Shown piece after piece: positions 5,556-60,639 of a stretch of 64,000 nt of DNA. Every line of letters starts with the position of its first letter. Position 1 is the first letter of the stretch. The notes beneath the pieces are model-generated. The model was given only the letters and a program-made list of their open reading frames with translations. It searched no databases and was not told where the DNA came from. The translations under genes and the position numbers were made by a program. Origin of the DNA: an uncultured Oscillospiraceae bacterium (GTDB lineage: Bacteria > Bacillota > Clostridia > Oscillospirales > Oscillospiraceae); the NCBI GenBank assembly GCA_964495095.1, contig CAZBUH010000001.1, forward strand, positions 2,491-66,490, read 5' to 3'.

Positions 5556-6911
5556 ATGAATATTTTTGTAAAGGACAGAGGATTCTATAAGAGCCTTGTG
5601 TCCATCGCCGTGCCGATACTCCTGCAGAATATCATCTCCTTTGGGGTGAACATGATGGATACGGTGATGCTGGGCAAATTCGGAGAGGTTGCCCTTTCCG
5701 GCTCGTCCATGGCAAACCAGTATTTTGTGATATTCAACATGATAACCCTCGGCCTGGGCGGGGGAGCGGCGGTGATAACAGCTCAATACTGGGGCAAAAA
5801 GGAGATACAGCCAATAAAGGAAATGACCTCTATCCTTATGCGGATGGCGATATGTATCTCGATAGTATTCGGGGCGCTGGCGGCAATTTTTCCGACCCAG
5901 ATACTGACGATATATACCAATGACCGGGAGGTAATTGCGGCGGGAGCGAAATATCTGAGGATACTCAGCATTTCATTCCTGTTTTTCGGCGTCTCCATGT
6001 CCGCTACCGGTATACTTCGTTCCATAGGCGTAGTACGGCTTCCTCTCTGTACCTCCATAGGCTCATTCATTCTGAATATCTTTTTTAACTATGTCTTTAT
6101 ATTCGGCAAATTCGGCGCCCCACGGATGGAGCTTGCAGGCGCCGCAGTGGGCACGGTAATAGCCAGGGGCTTTGAATTCTGCGTGATGGGCGGATACCTT
6201 TTCTTTTTCAATAAGCGCCTTAATTTCCGGCTGCGCGATATGAGGCTTTTCAGCCGCTCAATGCTGAAAAGCTACGCCAAAAGCGGCCTTCCAGTGCTTG
6301 TATCCGACTTTGTGACAGTGCTCTCCATATCGATAACCTCTATAATTATCGGCCACTGCGGCCAGGAATACATAGCGGCAAACAGTATTGTGTCCATTGT
6401 GAATAACCTTGTGGGGCTTATAACAATGAGCCTTGCTGCCGCGTCCAGCATAATAACCGGCAATACCGTTGGGGCAGGCGGCAGGGACATGGCCTACCGG
6501 CAGGGCATTACGATAATCGCCCTGGGCGTTCTGCTCGGTATTTTCGGCTCTGTAATACTGCTTCTTATACAGACTCCGTTTATCGGCATTTATGACGTGG
6601 GGGAGGTCACTAAAAATTTCGCGCATCAAATGCTGAATGCGCTGGCTGGGCTATTTATTTTCCAGTCTCTGGACGGCCTTTTGACAAAGGGGATACTCCG
6701 GGGAGGCGGCGACACAAAATACCTGCTTTTCGGAGATCCGGTCTTTATATGGATAATTTCCATACCCTTCGGATATCTGGCTGCTTTCGTGTGGGATTTT
6801 CCAGTGTGGGGCATATTTCTGGCGCTGAATTCTGATAGATTCGTAAAGGTTATCATAAATCTTGTAAGATTTTTCAGCAGGAGATGGATAAAGGATATTA
6901 CCGTCTCTTAA
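5556..6911 (+). CDS. MATE family efflux transporter
   Basis: ~12-TM protein with a MATE-like N-terminus (SLVSIAVPILLQNIISFGVNMMDTVMLG). ATG 5556 is preferred over 5502 for two reasons: 5502-5531 lies inside the ftsK terminator hairpin, and a GAGGA RBS precedes 5556. Confidence 0.85.
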   Translation: MNIFVKDRGFYKSLVSIAVPILLQNIISFGVNMMDTVMLGKFGEVALSGSSMANQYFVIFNMITLGLGGGAAVITAQYWGKKEIQPIKEMTSILMRMAICISIVFGALAAIFPTQILTIYTNDREVIAAGAKYLRILSISFLFFGVSMSATGILRSIGVVRLPLCTSIGSFILNIFFNYVFIFGKFGAPRMELAGAAVGTVIARGFEFCVMGGYLFFFNKRLNFRLRDMRLFSRSMLKSYAKSGLPVLVSDFVTVLSISITSIIIGHCGQEYIAANSIVSIVNNLVGLITMSLAAASSIITGNTVGAGGRDMAYRQGITIIALGVLLGIFGSVILLLIQTPFIGIYDVGEVTKNFAHQMLNALAGLFIFQSLDGLLTKGILRGGGDTKYLLFGDPVFIWIISIPFGYLAAFVWDFPVWGIFLALNSDRFVKVIINLVRFFSRRWIKDITVS

Positions 6912-6977
6912 ATTTCTTTTCCGCCGACACAGAGAGTACAAATCTTCAGTGTACTATGGGGATAGAGGGGTGATTGT

Positions 6978-7649
6978 ATGAACTACCGAATACTTATAGT
7001 GGAAGATGAAGATAAGCTCCGGGAGGTACTCTGTGATTATTTTATAAGCCGCGGTGATATCCCGACGGAGGCCCCGGATGGCGGGCGTGCGTTGGAGCTT
7101 ATTCAGGAAAACAGCTTTGACGCAGTGCTTCTGGATATTATGATGCCGGGGCTGGACGGCTTTTCCGTCTGCCGCGCTCTCCGCCGTGAGAGCGACGTGC
7201 CCGTGATTTTCCTGACGGCGATGTCCGATGAGGACGACAAGCTCCTGGGATACGAGCTGGGTGCCGACGACTATATTACAAAGCCCTTTTCCATGTCCGT
7301 ACTCTACGCTAAGGTCTGCGCCCTTATAAAGAGAAACCGGGGCAGCATTTCGTCCGACGGCAAATTTATACTTGGCGGCATAACAATAGATACGAAAACA
7401 CACCGCGTGGTGGCCGGCGGCAGGGAGGCGGCACTTACTCCAAAGGAGTATGATATCCTGATGTGCCTTGCCAGAAATAAAAATATCGTTATGACAAGGG
7501 AGCAGCTTCTTATAAAATGCTGGGGCTACGACTACGAGGGGAACATCAGGGCAGTGGACACCCAAATAAAGCGCCTTCGGGAGAAGCTGGGACAGCAGGG
7601 AGCCATGATAAAGACAGTCATAAAATCCGGATATAAGCTGGAGGTGTGA
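6978..7649 (+). CDS. OmpR-family response regulator
   Basis: Receiver domain (ILIVEDE, LLDIMMPGLDG, ITKPF) plus a Trans_reg_C effector (LTPKEYDILMCLARN..IKSGYKLEV). Confidence 0.9.
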   Translation: MNYRILIVEDEDKLREVLCDYFISRGDIPTEAPDGGRALELIQENSFDAVLLDIMMPGLDGFSVCRALRRESDVPVIFLTAMSDEDDKLLGYELGADDYITKPFSMSVLYAKVCALIKRNRGSISSDGKFILGGITIDTKTHRVVAGGREAALTPKEYDILMCLARNKNIVMTREQLLIKCWGYDYEGNIRAVDTQIKRLREKLGQQGAMIKTVIKSGYKLEV

Positions 7650-7650
7650 C

Positions 7651-9495
7651 ATGCTTTTTCACGGAAAGAATAAAAAGATAACGAAGGCCTTCGGGCTGTC
7701 GGCGCTTGTGATAATGCTGTCCTTCTGGGCAGTCTGCATGTACTGGCTCACCTATGAGTCGGCATACGAAATACGGGAGAGCGCTACTGTCAAGGCAAAT
7801 TACTCCGCCCGGGAGGTTATGGAGCATGTCGGCGCCTGTTTTGAGCGTATAAATACCGGAAACCCGGGAGCAGTAGGCTATGCAGTGTGCCAGAGCCTGG
7901 ATATGCCGATATATGCGTCTTTTGGAGCAACGCTTGCGACTGCAAGCTATGATCTTAACGACGCTTACGCCGCGGCGATTTACGACAGCGAGGGCAATGA
8001 GCTTTTCAGGTCCGGAAATTTTATATATTTTAATTACTGCGACGACAGCGGAAATATTGATAATTTAGCCTACGCAATGCTGGATAAACAGTTTCCAAAC
8101 GCTGAGGCGGATGAGAACGGGTATAAATTTCCGGATATGTTTTCATTTATGTCCTGCCAGGAAGTGGAGCTTACGGGCGTGATGGACGGCGGTGAGCTTT
8201 TGCTGCAAAAAATAGTGGGCTTTGTACCGAAAGCGCCTGGTTCTGTCTCCGGTGACTGGATCACATTTTTTGAGGACTACTCCCTTGTGCCCAGGAATGC
8301 GGAAACCGTCACGCTTTCAACAGAGTTCGGATATTTCCATTTATCGTCTTATAATTACAGTGACCGCAAAGAACTGTGGAATACCCTCGAAAGCAATGCC
8401 AAATACAACATCGAGGGAAATGAGAACGTGGTTTTTAATTTGGAAAAGCTTTGGGATACCCGGCGTGTATATCAATATGAGATAATATGCGGCGGGGAAA
8501 AGCTCTATTATGCGGCGGCTGTCGGCTTTAACCCGCTAAGAGCAGCCGTGTCGCGGCTTTTGGGCGTCTATCTTATAACATTCGTTATGACTGTAGGCTG
8601 GCCTGCTGGTATGCTATTAGATCTGCGGAGTCGTATCGAAAAGCCGCTGAAGGAACTGAACAGAAGCTATTCCGCCGGATATAAGCGGCACCCCCTCTAC
8701 GGAAACAGCCTTAAATTTGCCGAGATAGAGCGCCTTGCGGAAAATTACGATGATGTCCAGCGGAAGCTGGATGAGAGGGATTCGCAGCTTATCGCCGCCC
8801 AAAAGGCCCTGGATTTTGCCAAAACAGCGGAGGAGAACAGAAGAATCCTAACCTCAAATATCGCGCATGAGCTGAAAACGCCCCTTGCCGTTATACATAG
8901 CTATGCCGAGGGCCTTCAGGAGCACATAGCGGAGGATAAGCGGGACCACTATCTTCGGGTTATCCTGGACGAGACGGAGCGGCTGGACAGCATGGTGCTG
9001 GATATGCTGGATATCTCAAGGATGGAGGCAGGAAAGACAAAGCTGTATAAGGAGAGCTTTTCCCTCCTTGAGCTTACGGAATCGGTGTTTGACAGGCTGC
9101 GTATGGCCTGCGAGGGCAAGAATATACAGGTCGAAATAAAGGCAGCGGAGAGAGTTGACACCTTTGCCGATGTGAGGCGGATGGAACAGGTGGTTGAAAA
9201 TTTGGCCACAAACGCCGTCAAGAATACCCGCTCCGGCGGCAGCATAACGGTAAATATCATCAAAAACAGCGGCGGCGACAAGACGCGTTTCTCCATAGAA
9301 AACGACGGCGATAATATCCCCGAGGATAAGCTGGAAAAGCTGTGGGACGTTTTTTACAGGACCGACAATTCCCGTGACCGTTCCGGCGGCACTGGCCTCG
9401 GCCTTGCCATAGTGAAAAATATAATCCAGCTCCACGGAGGGGGCTGCACTGTCCAAAACACTCCAAGGGGAGTGAGATTCAGCTTTACGGTATAA
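7651..9495 (+). CDS. sensor histidine kinase with a large extracytoplasmic domain
   Basis: Two TM segments flank a ~290-aa unrecognised sensor region. H-box is SNIAHELKTPL; N/G1/G2 boxes are present (ENDGDNIP, GTGLGLAIV). The start lies 2 nt after the regulator stop. Confidence 0.9.
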   Translation: MLFHGKNKKITKAFGLSALVIMLSFWAVCMYWLTYESAYEIRESATVKANYSAREVMEHVGACFERINTGNPGAVGYAVCQSLDMPIYASFGATLATASYDLNDAYAAAIYDSEGNELFRSGNFIYFNYCDDSGNIDNLAYAMLDKQFPNAEADENGYKFPDMFSFMSCQEVELTGVMDGGELLLQKIVGFVPKAPGSVSGDWITFFEDYSLVPRNAETVTLSTEFGYFHLSSYNYSDRKELWNTLESNAKYNIEGNENVVFNLEKLWDTRRVYQYEIICGGEKLYYAAAVGFNPLRAAVSRLLGVYLITFVMTVGWPAGMLLDLRSRIEKPLKELNRSYSAGYKRHPLYGNSLKFAEIERLAENYDDVQRKLDERDSQLIAAQKALDFAKTAEENRRILTSNIAHELKTPLAVIHSYAEGLQEHIAEDKRDHYLRVILDETERLDSMVLDMLDISRMEAGKTKLYKESFSLLELTESVFDRLRMACEGKNIQVEIKAAERVDTFADVRRMEQVVENLATNAVKNTRSGGSITVNIIKNSGGDKTRFSIENDGDNIPEDKLEKLWDVFYRTDNSRDRSGGTGLGLAIVKNIIQLHGGGCTVQNTPRGVRFSFTV

Positions 9496-58219: not shown

Positions 58220-58575
58220 GGGGGTGTACCGGTTTCGACGGGGGTGTGGAGGCCGGAATAGCGGGCGGATGCGCCTAACATCCATAAAATGGGCAACTTA
58301 TAAATTAAAGAACAACGATTCTTTAGAATTAGCGGCTGCTTAACGCCGCTCGCTCCCCCGGAGAGGGCCACGGCTTCGGGCTGAGCGTCACTTAGTGGCG
58401 TCCGTGAGTGTGCAAAGCTTTGAGTACACCATGCACAATGAAGCTACCGAATTCTGACGCGTGACGGTTTGCGTCATAATAAGGGAACTGGCTATGCCGA
58501 AATAACCGCCTGCGCCCGGAGAAGTTCCTGTTAAAACACTTTCGGACAGGGGTTCAACTCCCCTCACCTCCACCA
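58220..58575 (+). ncRNA. ssrA: transfer-messenger RNA
   Basis: 5' GGGGGTGTACCGGTTTCGACGGGG and 3' GGACAGGGGTTCAACTCCCCTCACCTCCACCA form an acceptor stem with a G3:U70 pair. The internal tag ORF GCA ACT TAT AAA .. GCG GCT GCT TAA gives ATYKLKNNDSLELAAA. smpB lies 1.3 kb upstream. Confidence 0.93.
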
Positions 58576-58758: not shown

Positions 58759-59094
58759 ATGCCGGAACGCGGAAAATTTGACTGGATATCGGAGAAAATC
58801 GCGGGCGCCGTCGTACGCATCCCCGGAGCAGTGTTTGCAGATGGTGCCCATGCTAGAGCCGATTCAAGCATCAAGAAGGCAGTAAAAGAAAAGATTCCCG
58901 TCGCGGCCAGGCGTTATGCCGAGAAACTTATGGAGGAGGTAAACGCAGACCGTGAGGCCCATGGGAAGAAGCCGTTTGCAGAGGATGCCCGGTACACACC
59001 AATGTACAGGCGGCTGTACGGGCCGCGAAAAGAGACAATAGAGCGTGTATTTGCGGATGCCAGTGAGCGGCACGGAATGCGATTTTTACATTAA
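58759..59094 (+). pseudogene. transposase remnant (IS1182-like blocks, DDE core missing)
   Basis: The 111-aa ORF carries DREAHGKKPF and a C-terminal-type block RKETIERVFADASERHGMR, as recalled from IS1182-family transposases. There is no catalytic core and no terminal repeats were seen. It stops where the converging gene ends. Confidence 0.5.
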
Positions 59095-59095
59095 A

Positions 59096-60481
59096 TTATA
59101 TTTTCACGCACCAGCTTTTAAGGAAAGCCAGCTTTTCCTCCCGACCGGCCTCTGTAGAGGCTGCGCCGCGGCATGCCTCATAAAAGCCCTCGGTGTCCAC
59201 CCTGACGCCCGCAGTGTCCCAAACAGCCATATAGTCTTTATAAATTATATTGTAAAGCTCCTTTCTTCTGTCCGTTATGTCCAGTGAAAAGAAGTCCCGC
59301 GCCGTTATTTTATTGTTGTGGCTGTCCGTGCAGTGGAGGTACGGGCCGGTTATAAAGCGCTCGTCCACCTTGTAGGTGTCGTTGAATATTGGCTTTTCCG
59401 TCATCCTTATTTCAAGCTCCGTGCCGTATTCTGAGGCGCACTGGCATAAATCGTAAAACACCTTAAAATAATTGTCGGTAACGTCCTCGTTGCCGTATAC
59501 AAGGCGGAAAGTCTCGCTCCACGGCGCCACGGTGAGCACCTTTATTTTCAAATCCCTGGAATTTTTGCAGCAGGCACATATGGCTTTCCTGAAGGACACC
59601 TTCGCTGTCATAATCAGCCTGTAGCCGGATATCCACAGCTCCTCCGAGGCATTGGGAATTATGGATTCCAGAAGCTCATCCTTATAAAATTGCAGATTTT
59701 CTATACCGAAGCTCTTTAAAGTGTTTATGTACTCGTCATTTTTTGACTCCCGGTATTTAAGTACGGAGTCTGATAAAAGGCACAGCGCTGAGGCAATAAG
59801 CGACGTGGCCACTGCGATGGAGAGCTCATGGAGCACCCCGTCGCCCGTAAGGAGCCAGGAGGTCAAAAACAGCGCAGTCAAAATTACAAGCAGAGCCAGG
59901 AAAATGAAATTTCCCGTCAGCCGGTACTGCTTTATTATCTGCCGCTTTGTCTGGGACGCCGGCGAATAGTGGTAGTAGACCGTGTCTATCCCATCCCCCC
60001 GGTCGTCCTTTATCCGGCGGTGCTCAAAAAACCTGTGGGACAGGAGTATGCGGGTGTGGGAGTAATTTGTGGACCACGTGCGGGTAAATATGTGGTATTC
60101 TCTGAATTTATTGAGAAGCGTCTCATAAAACTGATTCGTAACGCCCCGGTTCCGGCACATCGGATGGACTATAACTGTGGTGATATACAAATTCGGCAGA
60201 TATTCCGGCGATATCTCCCGGCAGATATAGTTCCGCTTAAACGACATAAAGCCTATTACCTTCCGCCCCTCAAGCGCCACAAACGCCTCCTGCCGGCTCA
60301 GGGCTTCAAAATATTCCTCCGGTATCCGGGACTCCGCCTCCTGCCCCTTTAGGAAGCTCTGGGTGGTGGAATTGCGCTGTGAAAGGGGTGGCACAAACTC
60401 GCTGTCGCAGAGGGTAAGCAGTTCCTTTATTCCCGACAGGATGTTTTCTCTTTTTACATGCTTATAGTATTTTATCGTCAT
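59096..60481 (-). CDS. membrane-anchored GNAT acetyltransferase-domain protein with an unassigned C-terminal domain
   Basis: 461 aa. The GNAT motif A region is VIVHPMCRNRGVTNQFYETLLNKF. Two TM segments follow (FIFLALLVILTALFLTSWLL, LSIAVATSLIASALCLLSDSVL), then a ~210-aa soluble C-terminal domain. A GAGGGGGA RBS is present. Confidence 0.8.
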   Translation of the reverse strand: MTIKYYKHVKRENILSGIKELLTLCDSEFVPPLSQRNSTTQSFLKGQEAESRIPEEYFEALSRQEAFVALEGRKVIGFMSFKRNYICREISPEYLPNLYITTVIVHPMCRNRGVTNQFYETLLNKFREYHIFTRTWSTNYSHTRILLSHRFFEHRRIKDDRGDGIDTVYYHYSPASQTKRQIIKQYRLTGNFIFLALLVILTALFLTSWLLTGDGVLHELSIAVATSLIASALCLLSDSVLKYRESKNDEYINTLKSFGIENLQFYKDELLESIIPNASEELWISGYRLIMTAKVSFRKAICACCKNSRDLKIKVLTVAPWSETFRLVYGNEDVTDNYFKVFYDLCQCASEYGTELEIRMTEKPIFNDTYKVDERFITGPYLHCTDSHNNKITARDFFSLDITDRRKELYNIIYKDYMAVWDTAGVRVDTEGFYEACRGAASTEAGREEKLAFLKSWCVKI

Positions 60482-60525
60482 ATCCGGTCCCCCTCACAGT
60501 TTTTGAACAGTCGTTTAATACTCAA

Positions 60526-60560
60526 ATAAAAAGACGACATGCCGAAGCACGCCGTCTTTT
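60526..60560 (-). terminator. terminator after tRNA-Arg
   Basis: The minus strand reads AAAGACGGCGTGCTTCGGCATGTCGTCTTTTT, with a GACG/CGTC-based stem and a T run. Confidence 0.55.
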
Positions 60561-60562
60561 GC

Positions 60563-60639
60563 TGGTACGCCAGAAGGGACTCGAACCCCCGATCTCACGG
60601 TTCGTAGCCGTGCACTCTATCCAGCTGAGCTACTGGCGC
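60563..60639 (-). tRNA. tRNA-Arg (anticodon ACG)
   Basis: 77-nt cloverleaf with encoded CCA: GCGCCAG TA GCTC AGCTGGATA GAGT G CACGG CT-ACG-AA CCGTG AGATC GGGGG TTCGAGT CCCTT CTGGCGT A CCA. Confidence 0.9.

Follow-up and report, generated by a model that had tools for sequence, protein, structure and literature searches.

Phospholipase D (PLD) folds that have lost their catalytic residues occur in several described proteins: the one in TrmB is a sugar sensor, the one in MITD1 a membrane binder and the one in FAM83 a kinase scaffold. DUF5919 (Pfam PF19319), the C-terminal domain of Streptomyces SAV_2148-type HEPN proteins and of XRE-type helix-turn-helix (HTH) regulators, likewise lacks the canonical HKD residues of PLD enzymes. 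In the HEPN survey of Anantharaman et al. (PMC3710099), SAV_2148 is described as a HEPN domain fused to a phospholipase-D nuclease domain. Here we describe a gene of an uncultured Oscillospiraceae bacterium that joins a domain of this kind to an acetyltransferase. The gene lies in a 64,000-nt stretch of contig CAZBUH010000001.1 (assembly GCA_964495095.1, positions 2,491 to 66,490 of the forward strand; hereafter the window) and encodes, from an ATG start codon, a protein of 461 amino acids (aa). The protein combines an N-terminal GNAT acetyltransferase domain, a predicted hairpin of two transmembrane (TM) helices and a C-terminal domain predicted to have a PLD-like fold.

Family and gene organization

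Whole-protein searches of Pfam, NCBIfam, PADLOC, PHROGs and PDB sequences returned generic GNAT matches only, and aa 250-461 had no match in any of these collections. A profile search with the C-terminal domain retrieved the same family only. The preliminary description of this stretch knew of no characterised protein with the three-part architecture; this still stands, as no family match was obtained and the literature search found no paper on DUF5919 by name or on a GNAT-2TM-PLD-like architecture. A total of 140 homologues, mostly of 455-500 aa and matching over the full length with 31-68% identity, were retrieved from a 5.8-billion-protein collection, and an exhaustive search of a representative library gave 695 proteins at E<=1e-3. 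The family comprises at least 140 clusters at 90% identity from at least 77 species. The gene is thus real, and it belongs to an uncharacterised but well-conserved protein family.

Among 185,579 species-representative genomes, 77 loci were found. After open reading frames (ORFs) had been called and neighbours clustered, the gene for the C-terminal domain could be identified in 70 of them. The GNAT and the 2TM+PLD-like part are fused in one gene of approximately 460-500 aa at 25 of these 70 loci. At 38 loci they are split, with a GNAT gene of about 175 aa directly 5' of a 2TM+PLD-like gene of about 300 aa, and the other seven loci hold fragments. The two genes overlap or lie no more than 31 bp apart in 36 of the 38 split loci. 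Ten of the pairs overlap by 4 bp, which is typical of translational coupling, and naive start-codon choice may account for a part of the larger overlaps. Because fused and adjacent split forms both occur, the GNAT and the 2TM+PLD-like part constitute an obligate functional pair. The maximum-likelihood tree of the C-terminal domain requires three changes between the fused and split states, of which the starred branches alone force one. Branch support is high for the fused clades (Oscillospirales, 99; Eggerthellaceae, 100; Cellulomonas group, 99).

We also considered whether the GNAT subfamily exists apart from its partner. Stand-alone GNAT relatives of about 175 aa are numerous; three of them, taken from a GNAT-only search irrespective of their context, are each followed by a gene of about 300 aa without a Pfam match. 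The idea was rejected, as all three sampled stand-alone GNATs have the partner gene directly downstream. An actinobacterial GNAT variant, P0211, has a different C-terminus. In another homologue, P0146 (473 aa), the GNAT is replaced by a PAS_3 domain and the opening residues of a GGDEF domain, which precede the TM2+PLD-like part. P0146 is either a natural domain swap or a chimera of assembly or recombination, and it looks chimeric. As a single sequence of this appearance, it was set aside as evidence of modular inputs.

Predicted domains and their conservation

The GNAT domain matches Pfam PF00583 (Acetyltransf_1) over aa 48-139 with 30.4 bits, above the curated cut-off of 20.7 bits. The GNAT alpha/beta fold is present in the AlphaFold model, in which the predicted local distance difference test score (pLDDT) exceeds 90 across most of aa 1-172, and Foldseek aligned it to solved GNATs with a probability of 1.0 and target-normalised template-modelling scores (TM-scores) of 0.65-0.79. 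The top fold matches of the whole model are phosphinothricin acetyltransferases, YncA, RimI and Naa-type enzymes. The acetyl-CoA motif A, CRNRGVTNQFY, had been noted in the preliminary description, and it is intact and conserved: R110 and Y119 are invariant and G113 is at least 90% conserved among 51-99 homologues. The pyrophosphate-loop pattern Q/R-x-x-G-x-G/A appears in it as R110-N-R-G113-V-T115, with a family consensus of R-x-x-G-I-[AT].

The GNAT subfamily (51 members at 33-63% identity) has 20 invariant residues. These include F29, P31, L33, R36, Y57, Y99, T102, R110, Y119 and T133-R-T-W136, and further N139, H142, R161 and D166-T-x-Y169. Since the subfamily has an invariant signature of its own, we argue for a specific, conserved substrate. 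One part of the signature is EFVPPLSQRNSTTQ, in which F29, P31, L33 and R36 are invariant and P32, T39 and Q41 are at least 90% conserved; judged from the model, it probably sits in the alpha1-alpha2 region on the substrate side of the GNAT. The domain shares the GNAT fold and the acetyl-CoA motifs with small-molecule and N-terminal acetyltransferases (phosphinothricin acetyltransferase/BAR, YncA, RimI, Naa30/50 and Clostridium GlmA, 5kf1), which are its best structural and profile matches for aa 1-175. It differs from them in sequence, with an identity of at most 18%, in its own signatures EFVPPLSxRxSTTQ, TRTWSTNxxH and DRGxGIDTVYY, and in its coupling to a 2TM+PLD-like partner. A stand-alone GNAT with 37% identity to aa 18-146 is encoded on the Halobellus limi plasmid NZ_CP031312.1 (72170-72721), flanked by methyltransferase and metallophosphoesterase genes. 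Because this gene stands alone, the GNAT subfamily extends to Archaea without the PLD-like partner.

Two hydrophobic stretches follow the GNAT domain, at approximately aa 186-217 and 215-241 on the Kyte-Doolittle scale. They are separated by a short acidic loop (TGDGVLHE; 4-6 residues), and clusters of Lys and Arg flank both cytoplasmic sides, with KRQIIKQYR preceding TM helix 1. AlphaFold modelled the helices of the hairpin at a pLDDT of approximately 90. The preliminary description had expected such a hairpin to return the chain to the cytoplasm. The charge distribution fits an N-in/C-in topology, which would leave both soluble parts cytoplasmic. TM helix 2 bears a conserved face, E-L-x-L-A-x-A-T-S-L-x-A-S, in which T226 and S227 are invariant and A223, L228, A230 and S231 are at least 90% conserved. 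The invariant T226 and S227 on this small-residue face argue that TM2 is more than a passive anchor. The stalk helix that continues TM2 aligns in Foldseek with the helix preceding the TrmBL2 domain.

The full-length AlphaFold model has a mean pLDDT of 85.9 and a predicted template-modelling score (pTM) of 0.50, and is laid out as a GNAT domain (aa 1-172), a helix at 188-211, a helix at 216-257 and an alpha/beta domain (aa 260-461). A separate model of the C-terminal domain, built from 54 sequences of related loci, has a pLDDT of 86.3 and a pTM of 0.83. Its significant Foldseek matches are exclusively PLD-superfamily folds, all 40 PDB matches at E<=1e-3 belonging to the PLD clan. They include TrmBL2 (E 1e-6), a Streptomyces PLD, MITD1, SauUSI, polyphosphate kinase C-terminal domains, poxvirus F13, NucT, FAM83A, phosphatidylserine synthase, Zucchini and the TrmB sugar-binding domain. 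Among viral structures (BFVD), the top matches are also PLD proteins. The C-terminal domain is predicted from these models to have the fold of the phospholipase-D superfamily. Sequence profiles reach the catalytic members of the superfamily in part: hhalign aligned the domain to PLDc_2 of cardiolipin synthases with 84% probability over only the N-terminal 53 columns. The PLDc_2 hidden Markov model (HMM; cut-off, 27 bits) did not match the window protein at E<=1, two homologues reach sub-threshold scores of 17-19 bits, and no member reaches the cut-off. The domain matched no well-characterised family with a housekeeping role.

The three sequence blocks of the C-terminal domain that the preliminary description had singled out, ELWISGYRLIM, LKIKVLTVAPWS and PIFNDTYKVDERFITGPYLH, all occur in it and show the strongest block conservation in the family. 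In an alignment of 99 sequences, the invariant residues are T226, S227, G259, K267, W283, G286, R288, F366, D368, Y370, D373, A394 and F397, and many residues of the GNAT part are at least 90% conserved; the GNAT motifs are not degenerate. The beta core of the C-terminal domain has no invariant His or Lys, and the motif HxK(x)4D(x)6G[ST]xN is absent from it. A beta-hairpin, PIFNDTYKVDERFITGP, is the putative equivalent of the HKD motif. It has model strands at 367-372 and 375-380, and P364, F366, D368, Y370 and D373 are invariant or nearly so. The hairpin reads F366-N-D368-T-Y-K-V-D373...T-G-P in comparison with HxK(x)4D, and only the structural Asp is kept. The position of the catalytic Lys is now taken by an invariant Asp, an assignment accurate to about one residue that was made by manual alignment and secondary structure. 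Lacking an invariant His and an invariant Lys in its core, the domain is not a canonical HKD enzyme. Its conserved set (W283, R288, P320/W321, Y329, N337/Y338, F366, D368, Y370, D373, T378, P380, D396, F397 and F398) would lie at the C-terminal ends of the strands and on the hairpin, which corresponds to the active-site face of PLD enzymes.

The Pfam DUF5919 HMM (cut-off, 23.5 bits) matched neither the window protein nor any protein in eight carrier genomes. For a DUF5919 reference, 32 domains scoring above the cut-off were collected in 300 genomes of the class to which one Actinomycetota carrier belongs, and 13 of them were aligned. In hhalign, the family profile matched this reference with 92.7% probability (E 4.1e-7) over 145 columns. 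The matched blocks are W-I-S-G-Y-R-L, the strand before P-P-W-S, E-I-R-x-T-x-K-P-x-F-N-D-T-Y-K-V-D, I-T-G-P-Y and L-Y-x-x-x-x-x-E-Y-x-x-x-W. The preliminary description had likened the C-terminal domain to HKD-less PLD-like domains of the DUF5919 type. The PLD fold, the loss of the HKD residues and a remote homology to DUF5919 are borne out by these comparisons, and membership in DUF5919 is not. On profile evidence, the domain appears to be a remote homologue of DUF5919 rather than a member of that family.

The two families have the same order of strands and helices, and they share the blocks G-x-[RK]-[VI]-R-x-L, [EQ]-[IV]-R-x-x-x-x-x-x-F-x-x-Y-x-V-D, P-Y-[LM] and L-[FY]-x-x-x-x-x-x-[FY]-x-x-x-W. 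In both, the domain lacks the canonical HKD residues and stands C-terminal behind another functional domain, which in the DUF5919 samples is an N-terminal XRE-type HTH (HTH_3/HTH_31) or HEPN_SAV2148. Compared with DUF5919, the GNAT family adds the invariant residues W283, R288, Y329, Y338, D368, Y370 and F397. DUF5919 proteins are soluble and carry HTH or HEPN, whereas the GNAT family has a 2TM membrane anchor and a GNAT; DUF5919 is found in Streptomyces, whereas the GNAT family occurs mainly in Clostridia and Paenibacillus. Because the partners vary among HEPN, HTH and GNAT, PLD-like domains of this type are suggested to be a reusable regulatory module. The HEPN_SAV2148 + DUF5919 protein itself, of about 420 aa, is highly conserved (E ~1e-88 over 14 genomes; L092, L104; Actinomycetota G182, G329).

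The archaeal regulators TrmB and TrmBL2 provide the best structural match, including the long helix before the domain. Their dead PLD fold serves ligand binding or oligomerisation. They differ in having a winged-HTH N-terminus, in being soluble and in lacking a GNAT, and the identity is approximately 12% with TM-scores of approximately 0.4. MITD1 and FAM83 (DUF1669) also contain HKD-less PLD folds, which act in membrane binding (MITD1) and in enzyme docking (FAM83 with CK1), and they are precedents for both binding roles proposed below. They are eukaryotic proteins with no sequence similarity to the family, no TM anchor and no acetyltransferase partner.

Distribution and genomic setting

The gene was absent from all 60 relatives searched (in 36 other genera of the family and 24 other families of the order), and it is therefore not a universally syntenic core gene, a status that would have spoken against the accessory function suggested in the preliminary description. 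A profile of the C-terminal domain, run over 400 evenly sampled Bacillota genomes, matched only the copy in the window and, weakly, cardiolipin-synthase-like proteins. Carriers in the Bacillota include Oscillospiraceae, Ruminococcus, Clostridium leptum DSM 753, Acutalibacteraceae, Christensenellaceae, Lachnospiraceae and eight Paenibacillus species, and those in the Actinomycetota include Eggerthellaceae, Brachybacterium, Cellulomonas and Olsenella. Cultured carriers include C. leptum DSM 753, Paenibacillus barengoltzii NBRC 101215, P. abyssi, P. mangrovi and Brachybacterium paraconglomeratum JCM 17781. On the tree of the C-terminal domain, the Actinomycetota sequences nest within the Bacillota. 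This nesting and the patchy presence indicate that the family is accessory and horizontally transferred among Gram-positive bacteria.

All-against-all clustering of the flanking ORFs detected no recurring neighbour besides the GNAT partner. The 123 nearest flanking genes match 137 Pfam families, the commonest of which, ABC_tran, was found three times. PADLOC gave few matches among them, namely SngC, BrxH, a type IV restriction enzyme and three mad3. Some loci adjoin restriction-modification (R-M) genes, a TIR protein or an nSTAND ATPase, and other loci lie amid sporulation, transport or central-metabolism genes. Rfam detected no riboswitch or other known RNA element upstream in 20 loci. Homologues of the module were found on none of 72,556 plasmids and 50,697 phages, the plasmids giving only haloarchaeal stand-alone GNATs. 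PADLOC-DB 2.0 contained no family matching the window protein at E<=1. The cassette is autonomous and self-contained. A role in defence, toxicity or envelope modification had been proposed from the location of the gene, and no positive evidence for it emerged, there being no PADLOC match, no neighbour theme and no phage or plasmid copies. Just 5' of the homologue P0010 lies a gene for a protein of 413-431 aa without a Pfam match (L001/L012, ~6400-7700; L003, 193-1434), which adjoins a type I/IIG R-M methylase and an S subunit.

In the window, the three-part gene does lie between tmRNA and tRNA-Arg genes and abuts a decayed insertion sequence (IS), and all of these context features were located as the preliminary description had claimed (Table 1). 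The transposase remnant aligns to positions 426-459 of the 488 positions of the NF033551 profile and stops at approximately position 462. The stop codons of the remnant and of the GNAT gene are 1 nt apart (window 59092-59098), and the C-terminal tail, which is variable in the family, is about 5-20 residues shorter in the window protein than in most homologues. One deletion may have clipped both the transposase remnant and the 3' end of the GNAT gene. The G+C content of the stretch holding the gene is not distinct within the window. In 22 relatives, no tRNA-Arg lies within 1.5 kb of the tmRNA, hence there is no empty site for comparison with the proposed islet between integration hot spots.

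The start codon is preceded, 6 nt upstream, by the strong Shine-Dalgarno sequence GAGGGGGA. A strong terminator-like hairpin, read directly from the sequence and not listed by a consensus scan, lies directly 3' of the tRNA-Arg and leaves about 45 nt to the start of the GNAT gene. No convincing promoter was recognised in these 45 nt, and expression of the GNAT gene may rely on read-through from a promoter-like site of the tRNA at 60692-60664. The gene is single-copy in its own genome. At E<=1e-10, PLDc_2 (cardiolipin-synthase-type) matches were obtained in 12 of 25 relatives, one to four in each, and none in that genome. This absence may reflect a gap, the genome being approximately 90% complete.

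Table 1. Positions of the gene, its predicted parts and its neighbours in the window
Feature	Position	Strand	Basis
Whole coding sequence (GNAT, 2TM hairpin and PLD-like domain)	59096..60481	-	ORF list, homologues, AlphaFold model
GNAT acetyltransferase domain, aa 1-175	59957..60481	-	Pfam PF00583, Foldseek, subfamily conservation
Subfamily signature EFVPPLSQRNSTTQ, aa 28-41	60359..60400	-	Alignment of 51 members
Acetyl-CoA motif A CRNRGVTNQFY, aa 109-119	60125..60157	-	Direct sequence reading
Predicted TM helix 1, aa 188-211	59849..59920	-	Hydropathy up to 2.6; AlphaFold helix 188-211
Predicted TM helix 2, aa 216-240	59762..59836	-	Hydropathy 1.6-1.8
Predicted stalk helix, aa 241-257, continuous with TM2	59711..59761	-	Single model helix 216-257
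Predicted C-terminal PLD-fold, DUF5919-like domain, aa 258-461, without HKD residues	59099..59710	-	Domain model, Foldseek, hhalign
Putative beta-hairpin equivalent to the HKD motif, aa 364-380 (PIFNDTYKVDERFITGP)	59342..59392	-	Model strands, conservation
Shine-Dalgarno sequence GAGGGGGA	60488..60495	-	Direct sequence reading
Terminator-like hairpin (11-bp stem, UUCG loop, T-run) between tRNA-Arg and GNAT gene	60526..60557	-	Direct sequence reading
tRNA-Arg (ACG), upstream neighbour on the same strand as the GNAT gene	60563..60639	-	ARAGORN; Rfam, 61.4 bits
IS1182-family transposase, C-terminal remnant, convergent with the GNAT gene	58759..59094	+	NCBIfam NF033551, E 1.8e-6
tmRNA gene	58220..58575	+	Rfam RF00023, 148.7 bits

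Possible roles of the gene pair

We favour the reading that the protein is a membrane-tethered two-module acetyltransferase, in which the PLD-like domain binds a ligand, a substrate or the GNAT and thereby recruits or gates the enzyme; by analogy with described systems, its chances of being right or wrong seem to us evenly balanced. The domain would be a non-enzymatic binding module at the inner face of the membrane. The rigid helix formed by TM2 and the stalk would hold it under the membrane, probably as a dimer. The cluster of aromatic and acidic residues at the former HKD site would bind the ligand, the substrate or the GNAT itself, through which the acetyltransferase would be recruited or gated at the membrane. 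N-acetylation by the GNAT would follow, on a target that carries an amine and is located at, or arrives through, the membrane; among the candidates are cationic small molecules or antibiotics, lipid head groups and proteins close to the membrane. GNATs acetylate amines, and it may be speculated that a phosphodiester would suit an acidic and aromatic face with an Asp at the old Lys position less well than a cationic or amine ligand. A binding module is proposed because other dead PLD folds bind (TrmB, MITD1 and FAM83) and because DUF5919 stands behind HTH or HEPN.

Several points weigh against this reading. The full-length pTM of only 0.50 leaves the relative placement of the domains undefined, and no contact of the GNAT with the PLD-like domain is modelled with confidence. 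The TM-scores of the C-terminal fold are modest (0.35-0.58), though the hits agree fully, and the former HKD site was mapped by a manual alignment with an accuracy of about one residue. The extreme rarity of the gene, with 77 carrier species and none among 460 relatives and phylum members sampled, and its patchy horizontal spread would also fit a conflict or defence gene, and toxins commonly contain GNAT or HEPN, two partners of this type of PLD-like domain. Beyond the architecture, the reading is argued throughout from analogy with other systems.

The main alternative is a toxin-sensor conflict module. The GNAT would be a growth-arresting toxin, acetylating for example aminoacyl-tRNA as TacT and AtaT do, restrained by its membrane PLD-like partner, which would free or activate it on phage infection or membrane damage as in fused toxin-antitoxin sensors. 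We consider this unlikely. The tight coupling or fusion of the pair with overlapping genes, its rare and patchy occurrence with cross-phylum transfer, and the fusion of the related DUF5919 to HEPN, a typical conflict-system domain, would all suit such a module. So would the R-M, TIR, nSTAND, BrxH, SngC or type IV restriction enzyme genes beside some loci and, in the window, the nearby tRNA, tmRNA and IS remnant. However, PADLOC gave no match, defence-like genes are a small minority of the 123 flanking genes, most of which are housekeeping genes (glutamine synthetase, SpoIVA, GerA and transporters), and the plasmids and phages searched carry no copy of the module. One homologue has the same neighbourhood on most contigs carrying it. 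The family resembles the GNAT toxin-antitoxin pairs TacAT, AtaRT and KacAT, and fused toxin-antitoxin sensors, in combining a small GNAT with an obligate partner. It differs from TacAT, AtaRT and KacAT in having no ribbon-helix-helix (RHH)/DUF1778 antitoxin, in its opposite gene order with the GNAT gene first, in its membrane-protein partner and in the lack of plasmid or phage association. The nearest structural GNATs are small-molecule and N-terminal acetyltransferases, and no GNAT toxin is among the top 50. A bolder version, slightly less probable again, is that the pair is a previously unrecognised single-cassette conflict system, in which a PLD-like/DUF5919-type switch has been attached repeatedly to toxin-type effectors (GNAT here, HEPN in Streptomyces) and responds to infection or envelope damage by releasing, at the membrane, an acetyltransferase that arrests growth.

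Two other proposals give the parts different tasks. In a two-enzyme lipid-modifying machine, the PLD-like domain would act non-canonically on a phospholipid or lipid-linked precursor, and the GNAT would acetylate a bound or exposed amine, such as that of an aminolipid head group. The modelled tethering of the domain about 20 residues from the membrane surface, PLD-fold relatives such as phospholipase D, phosphatidylserine synthase and cardiolipin synthase, the invariant polar residues within TM2 and the confinement of the family to Gram-positive lineages are in keeping with this proposal. We nevertheless regard it as improbable: the conserved core has neither a His nucleophile nor a Lys, a phosphodiester ligand is unlikely because an Asp lies near the position of the phosphate-binding Lys, the PLDc_2 HMM stays below its cut-off in every member, and no lipid-synthesis genes recur nearby. 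The other proposal, to which we give the smallest chance of all, is a signalling protein with the 2TM+PLD-like core as sensor or output and an exchangeable N-terminal input, the GNAT serving as a sensor of acetyl-CoA or a metabolite and not as an enzyme. P0146, with its PAS domain in the place of the GNAT, and the occurrence of DUF5919 and TrmB-type domains in one-component regulators can be cited for it. Yet P0146 is one sequence with a truncated GGDEF start, every catalytic-site signature of the GNAT subfamily is strongly conserved, and the protein has no DNA-binding or other known output domain.

Under the favoured reading of a membrane-tethered acetyltransferase, the protein is a new variant combination of a GNAT enzyme and a putatively non-catalytic PLD-type domain, with no demonstrably new mechanism. 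Its dead PLD domain ties DUF5919 to a membrane-bound branch, carried by a cassette that is horizontally mobile among gut Clostridia, Paenibacillus and Actinomycetota. Since cultured carriers exist, the role of the cassette is directly testable. Should the toxin-sensor alternative hold, the family would add to the known defence or toxin systems a new one. A binding role is emerging for dead PLD folds, as in TrmB, MITD1 and FAM83, and a bacterial dead PLD domain coupled to a membrane acetyltransferase, if true, would represent a new principle of regulation or recruitment.

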